Below are positions 18,825 to 49,730 of a DNA stretch of 64,000 nt, piece after piece. The position numbers and the translations under genes are program-made. Numbering within the stretch: the first letter of the stretch is position 1; every line of letters starts with the position of its first letter. This DNA comes from Pseudobdellovibrionaceae bacterium (GTDB lineage Bacteria > Bdellovibrionota > FAC87 > UBA2466 > JACKAF01). The stretch lies in NCBI GenBank assembly GCA_020635235.1, contig JACKAF010000003.1, positions 76,051-140,050 on the forward strand, in the 5' to 3' direction. The notes beneath the pieces were generated by a model that was given only the letters and a program-made list of their open reading frames with translations, did no database searches and was not told the DNA's origin.

Positions 18825-18840
18825 TGCAAAGCGAGTGCCA
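18825..18840 (-). promoter_or_regulatory. sigma-54 promoter (-24/-12) for the PRC-barrel gene string
   Basis: Minus strand reads TGGCAC-TCGCT-TTGCA with exact GG-N10-GC spacing, about 45 nt upstream of the ATG at 18779. Confidence 0.6.
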
Positions 18841-43001: not shown

Positions 43002-43017
43002 TGGCATCGTATTTGCT
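43002..43017 (+). promoter_or_regulatory. sigma-54 promoter for the 43068 gene
   Basis: TGGCAT-CGTAT-TTGCT with exact spacing, about 50 nt upstream of ATG 43068. Confidence 0.6.
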
Positions 43018-45109: not shown

Positions 45110-46011
45110 AGATTATCGTGATGTCCCGGAACCGGAACCTGTATTCCACGCGCCGGCTCGTGGAAGCCGGGGAGGTCCGAGGGCACGAGATGGTGGTGGT
45201 CGATCCGCTCAAGTGCTACATGAACATCACCTCCCACCGGCCGATGGTGCATTATAAAGACCTTACGTTGGAAAATGTGGACGCCGTCATTCCCCGCATC
45301 GGGGCTTCGGTTACCTTTTACGGAACGGCGGTTCTTAGGCAGTTTGAGATGATGGGAAGTTTTTCGCTAAATGAGTCGGTGGCGATTACGCGTTCCCGCG
45401 ATAAACTTCGTTCCCTACAAATTCTCGCAAAAAAAGGGATCGGCTTGCCGGTCACCGGCTTCGCACATTCCACGAAAATGACGGACGATCTGATCAAGAT
45501 GGTTGGCGGGGCGCCGCTTATCATCAAGTTGCTTGAAGGCACGCAGGGAAAAGGCGTCGTTTTGGCCGAAACTCATAAGGCGGCAGAAAGCGTAATTGAC
45601 GCGTTTAGGAACCTGAGTGCGCATTTTCTTGTGCAGGAGTTCATCAAAGAATCTGCGGCAACTGATATCCGAGCTTTTGTGATCGGCGACAAAGTCGTGG
45701 CGGCGATGAAGCGCACCGGCAAAGAAGGCGAGTTTCGGTCCAATTTGCACCGAGGGGGCACTGCTGAAGTCATCAAAATTTCTCCGGAAGAGCGCTCTAC
45801 GGCCATACGCGCTTGCAAAGGCATGGGGCTAAACGTTGCGGGCGTGGATATCATGCGCTCAAATCATGGGCCCCTCGTATTGGAAGTGAATTCCTCGCCG
45901 GGTCTAGAAGGCATAGAACGCGCCACCAAGAAAGACGTAGCCGGCATGATTGTAGGCTATTTGGAAAAAAATGCCGTACGGGGCAAAACCAAAACAAAAG
46001 GCAAGGGTTGA
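45106..46011 (+). CDS. rimK: ribosomal protein S6 / alpha-L-glutamate ligase RimK (ATP-grasp)
   Basis: [22 protein letters not shown]..., with ATP-grasp motifs and [18 protein letters not shown] overlap with the upstream gene. Confidence 0.9.
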
Positions 46012-47024
46012 TGGGGGAGATTCGAATAGGCGATACCGCCATAGCCTTGGGGGAAAGTAAGACTGCCAACCTTTTTGTCGCGCGTCTTTATGATTATACC
46101 GACGTCAGTATTCCGATCCGGGTGATACGAGGGCGCGAAGATGGCCCGGTGCTTTTCGTCTCTGCCGCGCTTCACGGAGATGAACTCAATGGCGTGGAAA
46201 TCATTAAGCGCTTACTAAGAAGCCCGTCTTTGAAAAAAATTTGTGGAACGCTCATTGCTGTTCCTATCGTCAACGTTTTTGGATTTAACAACCGCTCTCG
46301 ATATTTGCCGGACAGACGCGATCTCAACAGATCGTTTCCGGGGCGCGATGACGGTTCCTTGGCCTCGCAAATTGCGTATCTTTTTAGAACTGAAGTTGTG
46401 GAAAAGTGCACGCACGGCTTGGACTTGCATACGGGCGCCTTACACCGCACAAACTTGCCGCAAATCCGTACTAACTTCCAAGACAAGGAGCTGGTAAAGC
46501 TTGCCAAAGCATTCGGGGCCCCGGTGGTGTTGGACGCCTCTTTGCCAGACGGCTCGTTGCGGGCAACTTCAGGGAAAGTTCCGGTGCTTCTGTATGAAGG
46601 CGGTGAAGCGCTTCGTTTTGATGAATTCGCCATCAAGGCGGGCCTGGCAGGCACGATCCGCTTAATGCGCCATCTGAAAATGTTACCGCCTTCGACGAAG
46701 CCAAAGCCCACACGTCGCAGTTTCCTTGCTCAGTCGAGTTACTGGGTGCGTGCTCCGCAGAGCGGAACGTTGAGGGTCTTGCGGCATATTGGCGATTGGG
46801 TGCGCAAAGATTCGTTACTGGGCGTGATTTCCAACCCGTTCGGGGAAGACTCCGTAAAGATTTTCTCTAAAGAGGCCGGTGTAGTTATCGGAAAAACTAA
46901 TATTCCTCTCGTCAACAGAGGGGATGCACTCTTTCACCTAGCAACGGCAGACAAGATAGATCCGAGGATAATGGACTTTCCAGGTTTTGCGGATCTGGCG
47001 GTGGAGCAGCAGTTCGACGATTAG
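46011..47024 (+). CDS. succinylglutamate desuccinylase/aspartoacylase (AstE/AspA) family zinc hydrolase
   Basis: ATG 46011 overlaps the rimK stop (TGATG). Motifs SAALHGDELNG and DLHTG. Confidence 0.8.
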   Translation: MGEIRIGDTAIALGESKTANLFVARLYDYTDVSIPIRVIRGREDGPVLFVSAALHGDELNGVEIIKRLLRSPSLKKICGTLIAVPIVNVFGFNNRSRYLPDRRDLNRSFPGRDDGSLASQIAYLFRTEVVEKCTHGLDLHTGALHRTNLPQIRTNFQDKELVKLAKAFGAPVVLDASLPDGSLRATSGKVPVLLYEGGEALRFDEFAIKAGLAGTIRLMRHLKMLPPSTKPKPTRRSFLAQSSYWVRAPQSGTLRVLRHIGDWVRKDSLLGVISNPFGEDSVKIFSKEAGVVIGKTNIPLVNRGDALFHLATADKIDPRIMDFPGFADLAVEQQFDD

Positions 47025-47278
47025 TCTCTGCTAAGAGGTTCGAGGAACGGCGGAATGGAGTGTCGCTCCATTCGCCGCCTCAATTCTTCAAGGGAGATCC
47101 CCAATCGGTGGGCAGCGGCCTCCAGATTGAACTCGGTGCTTCTGAGCGTTTTCACCAAATGAACACACTCCACTTCATCGAGTGTTTTCTGTGCTCCGCC
47201 CGTAAGGGCCCGATTGGGATTGATCTTAATCGACAAAGTAAATCCGATGCTACGCACGGCCCGGTTTGCGGGGTGCAT
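47021..47278 (-). CDS. orphan Fis-type (HTH_8) DNA-binding ORF without AAA+ domain
   Basis: KTLDEVECVHLVKTLRSTEFNLEAAAHRLGISLEELRRRMERH resembles the C-terminus of the neighbouring activator (MTLDEVECIHIVRILEAMNFNVSKAAEALGIDRGTLYRKAEKY). The start is unclear because the frame stays open up to about 47390. Confidence 0.5.
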   Translation of the reverse strand: MHPANRAVRSIGFTLSIKINPNRALTGGAQKTLDEVECVHLVKTLRSTEFNLEAAAHRLGISLEELRRRMERHSIPPFLEPLSRD

Positions 47279-47396
47279 TGCTATTAGGCGTTCCCTTTTG
47301 ATTGTTGGTCGATTGCGGGAACGGCTGGTTCTTTTGCTGATTTGTATTCGGGGTTGTATTGGTTTTTTCTGCTTTAGGTTTATTCTGGGATTTCAT
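47250..47396 (-). CDS. 48-aa N/Q/T/P/K-rich small protein (not in ORF track)
   Basis: Own translation gives MKSQNKPKAEKTNTTPNTNQQKNQPFPQSTNNQKGTPNSNAPRKPGRA. The ATG is preceded by AAGGAGG at 6-nt spacing and by a consensus sigma-54 promoter. Confidence 0.5.
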   Translation of the reverse strand: MKSQNKPKAEKTNTTPNTNQQKNQPFPQSTNNQKGTPNSNAPRKPGRA

Positions 47397-47453
47397 GATT
47401 AGCCTCCTTATGGCTTTAGAAGATTGGGTATTGCGAATTCTGTAGATTTCTTA

Positions 47454-47469
47454 TGCAACGGCGGTGCCA
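47454..47469 (-). promoter_or_regulatory. sigma-54 promoter downstream of the activator gene
   Basis: Minus strand reads TGGCAC-CGCCG-TTGCA with exact spacing, about 58 nt upstream of ATG 47396. Confidence 0.6.
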
Positions 47470-47527
47470 GCGGCATTACGTGCCTGTGGAGTCAGAGCCG
47501 AGTGTGAAAAATCGCCACAGCGTTTGA

Positions 47528-47540
47528 TTTTGCCACACTC
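47528..47540 (-). promoter_or_regulatory. 13-mer GAGTGTGGCAAAA, candidate activator-binding site
   Basis: The identical 13-mer occurs at 49024..49036 (+). Each lies about 50-70 bp upstream of a sigma-54 promoter. A related TGTGGCGATTTTTCACACTC follows at about 47500-47519. Confidence 0.35.
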
Positions 47541-48918
47541 AGGAGGCGCTTTTTTTTAGGGAGATCTTATATTTCTCGGCCTTACGGTACAGCGTTCCGC
47601 GATCAATTCCCAAAGCCTCAGCGGCCTTGGAAACGTTGAAGTTCATAGCTTCCAGGATGCGAACGATGTGGATGCATTCTACTTCGTCCAGAGTCATCGC
47701 GGACGAGGGTGTCTCTAACAACTCGGCTGGCGCCGAATGTTTTACCGATTCAAGGATTTCGGCAGGAAAGTCTTCGGGAAAAAGCACGGGAGTTGTCGTC
47801 ATGGAAACAGCGTGACTGATGGCGTGTTCTAGTTCTCGCACATTCCCCGGCCAGTGGTACGCTTTCAAGAGTGCAATGGCTTCATCGGAGACGTAGTTTA
47901 CAGTCTTATTCTCGTCAGACGCCTGGCGGAACAAAAAGTGGTACACGAGTTCTTCGATGTCGTCCACGCGCTCCCGCAAGGGTGGGATCTTCACTGTGAT
48001 GACACGCAGTCGATACAAAAGATCATCGCGGAATAGATTCTTGCGCACAAGTGATTGAAGGTCGCGGTGGGTGGCGCTGATTACGCGGACATCCACCGAG
48101 CGGTTTTCCGATGAGCCCACACGGCGCACCTCACCTTCTTGAAGCACCCGCAAAAGTTTTACCTGTAGACTCGGGCTTATGTCCCCGATCTCATCTAGAA
48201 AAAGCGTGCCGCCGTCGACCTCTTCAAAAAAGCCCTTCTTGTCTGTGGTTGCTCCGGTAAAGGCCCCTTTTTCGTGACCAAATAGTTCAGACTCGAGCAA
48301 AGTGTCAGTCAGAGAAGAACAGTTGATGGCGAGAAACTTTTTCGATTTCCTACGGCTATTGCTGTGGATCGCACGTGCGATTAGCTCTTTGCCGGTGCCT
48401 GTTTCCCCAAGAATCAGGACGTCTTTGTCAGAAGCTGTAGCTTTGGCAACGGCCCGGTAGACTTCTAGCATTCCCGGAGACGTTCCAACGAGAACTTTGG
48501 GGGCGGACGGTACTCCTCTCAAGACTGGCGCATTCTGTTTTGAGTGGCTTGCAAGCGCCGAATAGCGCGCCTCTGCCCGGTGGGCAGTCGCGAGCAAGTC
48601 ACTAAGCGCGAAAGGTCGAGTCAGGTAGTCAAAGGCCCCGCAACTTACTGCTTCGATGGCCGCTTCCAAGCTCCCCACTCCTGCGAGCAGTATCACCATC
48701 GCAAACGGGTCCACTTCTTTTGCCGCGCGAATCAACTCGAAGTTTGCTTCGTGTGCCGGTTCGATATCGCTGATGATGAGCGGGGGCGCTTCGCGTGTGA
48801 GCTCGCCGATTGCTTCTTGGCGCGAAGTTGCACGCACTACGCGAAATCCCTCGTGTTCAAAAAACTGCGCAAGTTCTTTGAGCCGGGAAGCGTCGGGATG
48901 AACAATCAAAACAAGCAA
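47539..48918 (-). CDS. sigma-54-dependent activator (atypical REC + AAA+ + Fis-type HTH)
   Basis: Walker A GETGTGKE, GAFTGA loop, C-terminal HTH. The receiver keeps the Asp (IISDIEP) but lacks the usual acidic pair, Thr/Ser and Lys (HPD, LLAGVG, LTRPF). Confidence 0.9.
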   Translation of the reverse strand: MLVLIVHPDASRLKELAQFFEHEGFRVVRATSRQEAIGELTREAPPLIISDIEPAHEANFELIRAAKEVDPFAMVILLAGVGSLEAAIEAVSCGAFDYLTRPFALSDLLATAHRAEARYSALASHSKQNAPVLRGVPSAPKVLVGTSPGMLEVYRAVAKATASDKDVLILGETGTGKELIARAIHSNSRRKSKKFLAINCSSLTDTLLESELFGHEKGAFTGATTDKKGFFEEVDGGTLFLDEIGDISPSLQVKLLRVLQEGEVRRVGSSENRSVDVRVISATHRDLQSLVRKNLFRDDLLYRLRVITVKIPPLRERVDDIEELVYHFLFRQASDENKTVNYVSDEAIALLKAYHWPGNVRELEHAISHAVSMTTTPVLFPEDFPAEILESVKHSAPAELLETPSSAMTLDEVECIHIVRILEAMNFNVSKAAEALGIDRGTLYRKAEKYKISLKKSAS

Positions 48919-49023: not shown

Positions 49024-49036
49024 GGAGTGTGGCAAA
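49024..49036 (+). promoter_or_regulatory. 13-mer GAGTGTGGCAAAA, candidate activator-binding site
   Basis: Identical to the minus-strand 13-mer at 47528..47540 and 49 nt upstream of the -24 GG at 49085. A related TGTGGAAAGC lies at 48996. Confidence 0.35.
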
Positions 49037-49083
49037 AACCCCCAAAACATCCAAATATTTGAATGCTTTAGCCTCAGAGTTCC

Positions 49084-49099
49084 TGGCATCGGCTTTGCT
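49084..49099 (+). promoter_or_regulatory. sigma-54 promoter divergent from the activator gene
   Basis: TGGCAT-CGGCT-TTGCT with exact spacing, about 50 nt upstream of ATG 49148. Confidence 0.6.
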
Positions 49100-49147
49100 T
49101 TACTAATGGGTGAGTAGTGAACTCGATCCCTTAGGAGGATTTTGGGA

Positions 49148-49399
49148 ATGCAAAAGCGATCGTATCTTATCGTACTTGGTTTGGCGGTTTTGATCGGCGT
49201 GGGCGTTAGCGTTCGCGCGCAACACAACGCAGCAAGCAACTTCGGCCAAAATGGGTATTTGGTAGCCGAGTCAGATGGCTATGATGATGCTTACGGATCC
49301 GATTCCTCCACGAGCGAGGACTCGGGAACAACGACGACCGACACCGGCACGACCGACTCCGGCACGTCGAACGACGACTATTCTTCCGAAGACTTTTAG
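49148..49399 (+). CDS. small secreted, strongly acidic D/S/T/G-rich protein
   Basis: AGGAGG lies upstream. Signal peptide MQKRSYLIVLGLAVLIGVGVSVRA. Mature part includes ...SDGYDDAYGSDSSTSEDSGTTTTDTGTTDSGTSNDDYSSEDF. Confidence 0.55.
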   Translation: MQKRSYLIVLGLAVLIGVGVSVRAQHNAASNFGQNGYLVAESDGYDDAYGSDSSTSEDSGTTTTDTGTTDSGTSNDDYSSEDF

Positions 49400-49436: not shown

Positions 49437-49730
49437 ATGAACTGGTTCTTGAAACTTGCCTTGCTAGCGTCCCTAGTGATGGTCGTCGCGCCCGTGATGG
49501 CCGATGATTCTGAATGGAACGAAGAGCCCGCCATGGAAGAAGGCGTGGATACCGCCCCTCCGGCCGCCCAGGCGCCCGAAGCGGCCAAGCCGAAAAAAGC
49601 TCGTGCTAAAACGGCCAAGGCAGCCAAAAAAGTCAGCCACAAATTGGCCAAGAAAGAATGTTTGAAGGAAAACCCGAAGCTTAAAGGCAAAGCGCTGAAA
49701 GAGTGCATCAAAGGCAAACGCGCTTCCTAA
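49437..49730 (+). CDS. small secreted protein with acidic N-part and Lys/Ala-rich basic C-part
   Basis: AAGGAG at 6-nt spacing. Signal peptide MNWFLKLALLASLVMVVAPVMA. The basic part reads ...AAKPKKARAKTAKAAKKVSHKLAKKECLKENPKLKGKALKECIKGKRAS. Confidence 0.6.
   Translation: MNWFLKLALLASLVMVVAPVMADDSEWNEEPAMEEGVDTAPPAAQAPEAAKPKKARAKTAKAAKKVSHKLAKKECLKENPKLKGKALKECIKGKRAS

Follow-up and report, generated by a model that had tools for sequence, protein, structure and literature searches.

A predicted sigma-54-dependent bicistron for a basic peptide and a stand-alone Fis/NtrC-type helix-turn-helix protein in a Bdellovibrionota clade

Closest described proteins and the locus

Fis is a small stand-alone protein of ~98 amino acids (aa) that combines the HTH_8 motif with an N-terminal β-hairpin arm and with long helices in an intertwined dimer. 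In NtrC1 of Aquifex aeolicus (4L5E) and in NtrC4 (3E7L, 4FTH), a DNA-binding domain of the same HTH_8 family is C-terminal and tethered to an AAA+ ATPase; NtrC-type DNA-binding domains pair via their N-terminal helices (PMC11407668). The locus analyzed here occupies positions 47021–47396 of a 64,000-nucleotide (nt) stretch of a Pseudobdellovibrionaceae bacterium assembly (contig JACKAF010000003.1), the whole of which is termed the window. It holds an open reading frame (ORF) for a 48-aa peptide, followed in the +1 frame by an HTH_8 helix-turn-helix (HTH). The two are assigned as separate adjacent genes, the HTH gene starting at TTG 47236 and not at ATG 47278, and they are likely to share one sigma-54-dependent transcript, immediately 3′ of the gene of a probable activator.

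The predicted 71-aa product of the second gene belongs to the same HTH_8 family as the NtrC1 and NtrC4 domains (root-mean-square deviation, rmsd, of 0.9–1.8 Å over 44–49 columns), and it is like Fis in being a small stand-alone protein with the same motif (rmsd of 0.9 Å over 43 columns). Unlike the tethered NtrC1 and NtrC4 domains, it would be a free protein, with ~18 and ~12 poorly predicted residues at its ends and an acidic start of the recognition helix. Unlike Fis, it has 71 aa, no predicted arm or long dimerization helices and a near neutral charge, is predicted to be sigma-54-dependent, and is confined to one small clade. Full-length similarity to Fis was not found in a search of solved structures, and the product is not a Fis ortholog. 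A relative's product bears in NCBI exactly the name of the generic 'Fis family / helix-turn-helix domain-containing' proteins, and other short or tandem HTH_8-only proteins are present in the representative library. In contrast to these, the protein described here is the closest paralog of the neighboring activator's domain, is encoded under that activator's presumed promoter and lies behind a conserved mini-peptide gene.

Coordinates refer to the window, and the locus is on the minus strand unless marked (+). The two genes and their immediate surroundings are:

47250..47396, minus strand: gene 1, 48-aa basic peptide, ATG 47396, stop TAG 47252..47250 (ORF and substitution pattern, dN/dS)
47237..47249, minus strand: intergenic spacer, 13 nt, with a conserved GGA at 47245..47243 (four-locus alignment)
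47021..47236, minus strand: gene 2, 71-aa stand-alone Fis/NtrC-type HTH, predicted start TTG 47236 (HTH_8 match and dN/dS)
47409..47403, minus strand: Shine-Dalgarno sequence AAGGAGG, 6 nt ahead of ATG 47396 (sequence)
47539..48918, minus strand: NtrC-type sigma-54 activator, 459 aa, receiver, AAA+ domain with GAFTGA, and HTH_8 (Pfam)

The peptide ORF, with its Shine-Dalgarno sequence, ATG 47396 and stop at 47250, is as the initial annotation described it. So is the open +1 frame, which runs from 47393 to the stop at 47021; its last ~70 codons constitute an HTH_8 domain (39.1 bits) resembling the C-terminus of the activator (44% identity, common LDEVEC.H.V). The first canonical start in this frame, ATG 47278, defines an 85-aa HTH ORF with a 29-nt overlap with the peptide ORF. 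Two overlapping genes, one gene split by a +1 frameshift or indel, and a decayed duplicate of the 3′ end of the activator gene had been put forward as readings of this arrangement.

Reading frames of the two genes

Four orthologous loci were compared: that of the window's genome (G000), that of a same-genus genome (G001, also recovered as L032, a Bdellovibrionota metagenome-assembled genome, MAG), a 681-bp ENA contig (L021) and a 1945-bp Logan contig with the most distant ortholog (L022). The whole region was aligned over the four loci, substitutions were counted by codon position, and the ratio of nonsynonymous to synonymous substitution rates (dN/dS) was calculated pairwise by the Nei-Gojobori method. 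For the peptide ORF, dN/dS is 0.05–0.22 in the peptide frame and 1.7–3.9 when the same bases are read in the HTH frame. In the HTH frame, the 14 codons from ATG 47278 to TTG 47236 give values of 1.7–4.3, and the segment from TTG 47236 to the stop gives 0.07–0.23. Codon-position bias tests yielded binomial p values from 8e-6 to 4e-3. At position 3 of the peptide frame are 15 of the 19 substitutions in the peptide ORF between G000 and G001 (p 6e-5) and 27 of the 47 between L021 and L022 (p 6e-4). Within the 25 nt from ATG 47278 to the peptide stop, 3/3, 5/5 and 6/7 substitutions occupy position 3 of the peptide frame, which is position 2 of the HTH frame. Past TTG 47236 the bias changes over to position 3 of the HTH frame. 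The switch is located exactly at the spacer, where the 13–14 nt between the genes diverge by ~50% at all codon positions, as in non-coding spacers. A GGA core 6–7 nt before the TTG is kept in all four loci while the remaining spacer diverges.

The most distant locus has the same anatomy. In L022, a 44-aa ORF ending in RKPGRA and a TAG stop is followed by a spacer of 13 nt, the same length as in the window's genome, and then by a TTG that aligns with TTG 47236. L022 lacks the upstream ATG, AAT GCA having been replaced by AAC GCT, a change that is synonymous in the peptide frame, and its HTH frame contains an in-frame TAG four codons upstream of the TTG. Constraint from both frames was not found within the overlap; nor are both parts of a fused frame conserved, without a stop between them, in the relatives. 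Indels between close relatives are multiples of 3 in the peptide frame. The comparison of orthologs frame by frame, which had been proposed beforehand, thus found the peptide frame alone conserved over the peptide ORF and the HTH frame conserved after the TTG. Together with the lack of any indel in three independent assemblies, the per-frame dN/dS values and the anatomy of L022 lead us to reject a frameshift, a pseudogene and a true overlap.

The true-overlap reading, by which an 85-aa HTH product initiates at ATG 47278 and shares the last 29 nt of the peptide gene, is very unlikely. This version is used by gene callers and by the relative's NCBI record, 85-aa proteins are present in databases, and ATG 47278 is the first canonical start and occurs in three of the four loci. 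However, the 14 additional codons have the high dN/dS values given above, all substitutions in the overlap but one are at peptide-frame position 3, and L022 has no ATG and a TAG before the TTG. A purine-rich motif comes no nearer to the ATG than 13 nt, but the TTG has the conserved GGA 6 nt ahead of it. The proposal of two overlapping genes is hence retained for the two genes and given up for the overlap, since the conserved predicted start is TTG 47236, 13 nt past the peptide stop. ATG 47278 appears to be fortuitous, formed by AAT GCA where the peptide has Asn-Ala.

The composition of the peptide explains why the +1 frame is open. The frame stayed open in 100% of 20,000 codon shuffles of the peptide ORF and in 100% of 20,000 synonymous resamplings with codons drawn from the activator's usage; the +2 frame was open in just 2–3% of the same trials. 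A stop codon in the +1 frame would have to start with the second-position T of a peptide codon, which must be NTA or NTG and thus encode Leu, Ile, Val or Met, and the next base must be A or G. Beyond Met1, the peptide contains no Leu, Ile, Val or Met, and T occurs at codon position 2 in only Met1 and one TTC (Phe). Met1 itself, as ATG-A, yields the TGA that bounds the +1 frame. The openness is forced by composition and therefore carries no information on coding; the open +1 frame over gene 1 is a compositional by-product and not a gene.

These results bear on the reading as a single ~125-aa gene broken by a +1 frameshift, whether a homopolymer sequencing error or a programmed event. The HTH frame is open from 47393, and it is open across the peptide ORF in the relatives too. 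Against this reading, that openness is the forced one just described, and upstream of the TTG the HTH frame is unconstrained (dN/dS of 1.7–3.9 over the peptide ORF). The TAG in the L022 spacer precludes a fusion there, the relatives' indels have lengths divisible by three in the peptide frame, and the same frame relation, free of any indel, is found in four lineages and three independent assemblies. The reading is scarcely credible. Contigs from three independent sludge or wastewater studies cover 47021–47396 with 0 gaps, and the T6/A6 run at 47363–47368, singled out in the initial annotation, is identical and ungapped in the contigs of all three. The locus sequence is present in ~20 activated-sludge and wastewater runs. 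The sole indel seen is at 47550, where one sludge assembly (run X2) is one base short in the A8 run close to the activator gene's 3′ end, a difference that would alter the last few activator codons; the other assemblies match the window. This indel may be either a homopolymer error or strain variation.

The predicted product of gene 1 is a very basic, hydrophobic-free and presumably disordered peptide. It has an isoelectric point (pI) of 11.3 and a grand average of hydropathy of −2.1, is rich in Asn, Gln, Lys, Pro and Thr, and contains Met1 and one Phe as its only hydrophobic residues. Twenty of its 48 positions are invariant; the first residues and the C-terminal RKPGRA are among these. The Shine-Dalgarno AAGGAGG is kept in three loci, the fourth having AGGAG. 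No Pfam or NCBIfam family matches the peptide, a profile search returned the window's own protein only, and a family-level genome search for homologs found the same genus only and none beyond the four loci. The best match in a protein atlas, a 'putative stress-induced protein' at 0.76, was under the noise level of the atlas and was not used.

An alternative for gene 1 is that the 48 codons are a translated leader only, which delivers ribosomes to the TTG or senses the supply of Asn, Gln or Lys, and that the peptide is functionless. Gene 1 has a strong Shine-Dalgarno sequence and gene 2 a weak one, gene 2 starts with TTG behind a spacer fixed at 13 nt, and the peptide is rich in Asn, Gln and Lys and of no known family. 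However, the amino acid sequence is conserved, both by its dN/dS and by its invariant residues with RKPGRA among them, and the predicted fold of 47190–47300 is no more stable than those of shuffled sequences (z = −0.23), with no terminator- or antiterminator-like structure. There was no Rfam match at the locus and no terminator-like site between the genes. The leader alternative is quite improbable, and the conservation pattern points to selection on the sequence of the peptide and not just on its being translated.

The 71-aa protein and the neighboring activator

Gene 2 matches HTH_8 (PF02954) over profile positions 1–41 of 42, scoring 39.1 bits (E 5.9e-10) where the Pfam cut-off is 22. In both the 71-aa and the 85-aa versions HTH_8 is the only domain; the AAA+ Sigma54_activat domain that characterizes enhancer-binding proteins was not found. 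The AlphaFold2 (AF2) model contains three helices at residues 19–33, 38–45 and 49–59, with predicted local distance difference test (pLDDT) scores of 74–82 in the core; the ends are disordered, residues 1–18 having no secondary structure and a pLDDT of ~48. The best Foldseek matches are 3E7L, 4L5E, 4FTH and Fis entries, with a probability of 0.99–1.0 and a rmsd of 0.9–1.8 Å, although E is just 0.1–1 owing to the short domain. The best sequence match among solved structures is 4L5E (E 0.0023). The model and the profile match place the protein in the HTH_8/Fis-type fold class. Its predicted pI is 8.0, with 11 basic and 10 acidic residues.

The activator encoded next to the two genes matches Sigma54_activat (233.8 bits), Response_reg (47.8 bits), HTH_8 (44.3 bits) and AAA_lid_14 in Pfam, and scores below every NCBIfam equivalog cut-off. 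Its receiver (48760–48918, minus strand), to which the weak Response_reg score belongs, has H-P-D in place of the usual acidic pair, and no histidine kinase gene adjoins the activator gene. The HTH of gene 2 and the activator C-terminus are 44% identical over 50 residues, with LDEVEC.H.V common to both. Among the 14 HTH_8 matches above the Pfam cut-off in the genome, only the domain of the adjacent activator resembles the 71-aa protein at E ≤ 0.01. The likeness is uneven along the domain. In helix 1, 9 of 15 residues are identical to the activator's, including a Cys where other activators have Arg; in helix 3, the recognition helix, 3 of 11 are identical. The activator's D-R-G-T-L-Y-R-K corresponds to S-L-E-E-L-R-R-R in the 71-aa protein, each being (nearly) invariant among its own orthologs, and R-G-T of the activator corresponds to L-E-E in all four HTH orthologs. 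The consensus for the basic or polar DNA-contact residues at the start of the recognition helix is s-R-s-T-L-y-R-K; here L and E stand in place of its R and T, and three loci retain the later basic pair, of which L022 (S-L-E-E-L-L-Q-R) has half. In LuxO, Ser423, Ile425, Tyr426, Arg427, Lys428 and Leu429, which match the later part of helix 3, are critical for function (PMC11407668); by comparison with these, L022 retains one of the two basic residues.

These comparisons suggest that the 71-aa protein and the activator's DNA-binding domain are paralogs, the former diverged but intact. The view that its ORF is a decaying remnant of a duplicated activator 3′ end draws on its position just downstream of the activator gene, whose domain is its closest paralog. 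Against decay, the frame is intact in four lineages down to 59% identity with dN/dS of 0.07–0.23, 40 columns are invariant across the orthologs, and a co-occurring strain variant carries 15 differences in the HTH gene, of which 12 are at third codon positions (p 3e-4). Decay is thus exceedingly improbable, but the element of that proposal which derived the HTH from the activator is plausible, and the small HTH may well have arisen through duplication of the activator's DNA-binding domain. Another HTH_8 match lies outside the window, in a short open frame of 119 codons (G000:C6:230770-230877); judging from this match, the genome may have another stand-alone Fis-type protein.

The family appears to be very small. 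Ortholog searches added none beyond the four loci: a word-indexed protein search gave 4 proteins and no further locus, and an exhaustive search of 1.8 billion representatives gave a single true cluster, the other 31 matches being generic HTH_8 or coiled segments. The 9 loci from a metagenome scan are each the C-terminus of a full-length activator with QKTLDEVER, and a genome-contig scan retrieved the same-genus MAG only. The same-family genome G002 was considered as a source of an ortholog and rejected, as its locus has a different activator and flagellar rod genes next to it. Neither a sigma-54 promoter nor the 13-nt element (13-mer) described below was found in 17 of the 18 other relatives' loci. 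The pair would seem, from sequence comparison, to be a lineage-restricted sigma-54 bicistron of one Bdellovibrionota clade.

Promoters, transcription and a putative feedback circuit

The regulatory features on the two sides of the activator gene, and the ORFs behind the second promoter, are:

47469..47454, minus strand: sigma-54 −24/−12 promoter TGGCACCGCCGTTGCA (pattern match and conservation)
47500..47541, minus strand: conserved upstream element, presumed enhancer (upstream activating sequence), from the activator stop codon onward (four-locus alignment)
47540..47528, minus strand: 13-mer GAGTGTGGCAAAA, copy 1, inside the upstream element (pattern count)
49025..49037 (+): 13-mer GAGTGTGGCAAAA, copy 2, 5′ of the divergent promoter (pattern count)
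49084..49099 (+): second sigma-54 promoter TGGCATCGGCTTTGCT, divergent from the activator gene (pattern match)
49142..49399 and 49437..49730 (+): two small ORFs (85 aa and 97 aa) downstream of the second promoter (ORF list)

The sigma-54 promoter named in the initial annotation was confirmed at 47469..47454. The promoter pattern of TGGCACCGCCGTTGCA has 2 matches in the window versus 0.04 expected, and TGGCAC-N5-TTGCA is conserved in all four loci; upstream of gene 1 it conforms to TGGCAC-N5-TTGCW with GG and GC 10 nt apart. A gene for sigma-54 itself is present in the genome (rpoN-type; PF04552, Sigma54_DBD, 212 bits). In the upstream element, TGTGGCAAAATCAAACGCT is invariant in all four loci, and a second TGTGGC and an imperfect inverted arm are also present. 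The 13-mer occurs 2 times in the window versus 0.14 expected, and its 11-mer core has just 2 copies in the 2.6-Mb assembly (79% complete). Each copy precedes a −24 element, copy 1 by 59 nt (the element at 47469) and copy 2 by 47 nt (that of the second promoter). The second 13-mer site (TTTTGCCACAC) and the second promoter with its layout are conserved in G001. Neither of the two ORFs behind that promoter has a Pfam or NCBIfam family. Two more exact matches to TGGCAY-N5-TTGCW are located at 18825–18840 (minus strand) and 43002–43017 (+), for a total of 4 in the window versus 0.16 expected; the additional two have no 13-mer nearby.

A wastewater metatranscriptome contains one 250-nt contig that is 100% identical to 47115..47364. 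It links the peptide ORF to the HTH gene across the spacer, extends through the first third of the latter and does not cover the 5′ end, and the same library contained nothing from the flanking 1.1 kb. The genes are probably transcribed, and the contig would fit a bicistronic RNA that is short and relatively abundant. At the other end of the locus, the stops of the HTH gene (minus strand) and of a convergent AstE/AspA-like gene (+) overlap at 47021–47024 (TTAG/CTAA) and leave no space for a terminator; the overlap has the same length, 4 nt, in G001 and measures 10 nt in L022. With overlapping convergent stops and no room for a terminator, both transcripts must extend into each other's gene. 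The listed 403-aa AstE/AspA-like ORF begins at a TTG within the RimK gene (45813–46020, +). Its true start is probably an internal ATG near 46008, right at the end of rimK, because the ORF of the relative begins at the Met-Gly-Asp-Ile-Arg position. A tie between the peptide and the convergent cluster of RimK, Zn_protease and AstE-like genes was dropped, adjacency in close kin having been its sole support.

In the model that we propose, the activator would bind GAGTGTGGCAAAA at its two flanking sigma-54 promoters and drive both operons. Gene 2 would probably be translated in part by coupling to gene 1, behind its weak conserved GGA. The small HTH would then be made only while the activator is active and would feed back on it. 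It might act as a poison subunit that pairs with the DNA-binding domain of the activator, or it might bind to DNA at another site or an overlapping one. The conserved pairing helix together with the remodeled reading helix favors pairing with the activator domain, or recognition of another sequence, over competition for the same site. Such competition, in which the free HTH would contend with the activator for the GAGTGTGGCAAAA sites, is unlikely. The common fold and origin are in its favor, and a promoter carrying the site would give a simple negative feedback loop. However, only 3 of 11 recognition-helix residues are shared, R-G-T has become L-E-E in all four orthologs, L022 keeps one of the two LuxO-critical basic residues (PMC11407668), and the protein is near neutral.

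A more specific version of the pairing route, in which the 71-aa protein is a dedicated poison subunit that heterodimerizes with the activator and pulls it off the two enhancers, is speculative and rather unlikely. If true, the subunit would be a duplicated DNA-binding domain that has retained the pairing helix with its unusual Cys and lost the activator's DNA-reading residues. Its production would be confined to times of activator firing, and the locus would constitute a pulse circuit that limits itself. The basic disordered peptide, translated along with it, might serve as a third partner of the pair of activator and 71-aa protein. The Id-type helix-loop-helix dominant-negative partners offer a functional analogy only: those partners lack a working DNA-reading surface, and in the 71-aa protein the helix that pairs monomers in NtrC-type domains is conserved and the DNA-reading helix has diverged. 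The families are unrelated. To our knowledge, no Id-like antagonist of a bacterial enhancer-binding protein is known. Nothing relevant was found in the literature on stand-alone HTH_8 antagonists of enhancer-binding proteins or on Bdellovibrio sigma-54 circuits.

Several points weigh against the reading of the locus as two adjacent genes on one sigma-54-dependent transcript with a feedback role. There are just four orthologous loci, three of them close kin, and the pairwise statistics are not independent. ATG 47278 is retained in the three close relatives, where a minor 85-aa isoform may exist. The transcription start, the protein starts and the products are predictions from sequence. The AF2 model, built from an 11-row alignment, has a mean pLDDT of 65, which makes its confidence moderate. 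The contig from the RNA library could be contaminating DNA, and it is no proof of a single transcript. A role in feedback, formation of a heterodimer and recognition of the 13-mer by this activator are all inferred.

The analysis has consequences for annotation. Any ORF for a peptide without Leu, Ile, Val and Met must have an open +1 frame, such that a long 'dual-coding' appearance over low-complexity hydrophilic genes needs no special explanation. Longest-ORF calling over-extends the downstream HTH gene, and the public record of the relative has the 85-aa version. The 48-aa, presumably disordered peptide, which is under selection, would be one more real small protein of the type that gene callers often miss. 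The host belongs to an uncultured Bdellovibrionota clade that recurs in activated sludge. Its locus would represent a compact, self-contained sigma-54 module comprising an activator with an atypical receiver, two flanking promoters that bear a presumed binding element found nowhere else in the genome, and four tiny products, in which a paralog of a DNA-binding domain, placed under the control of its presumed parent, is a candidate feedback regulator.

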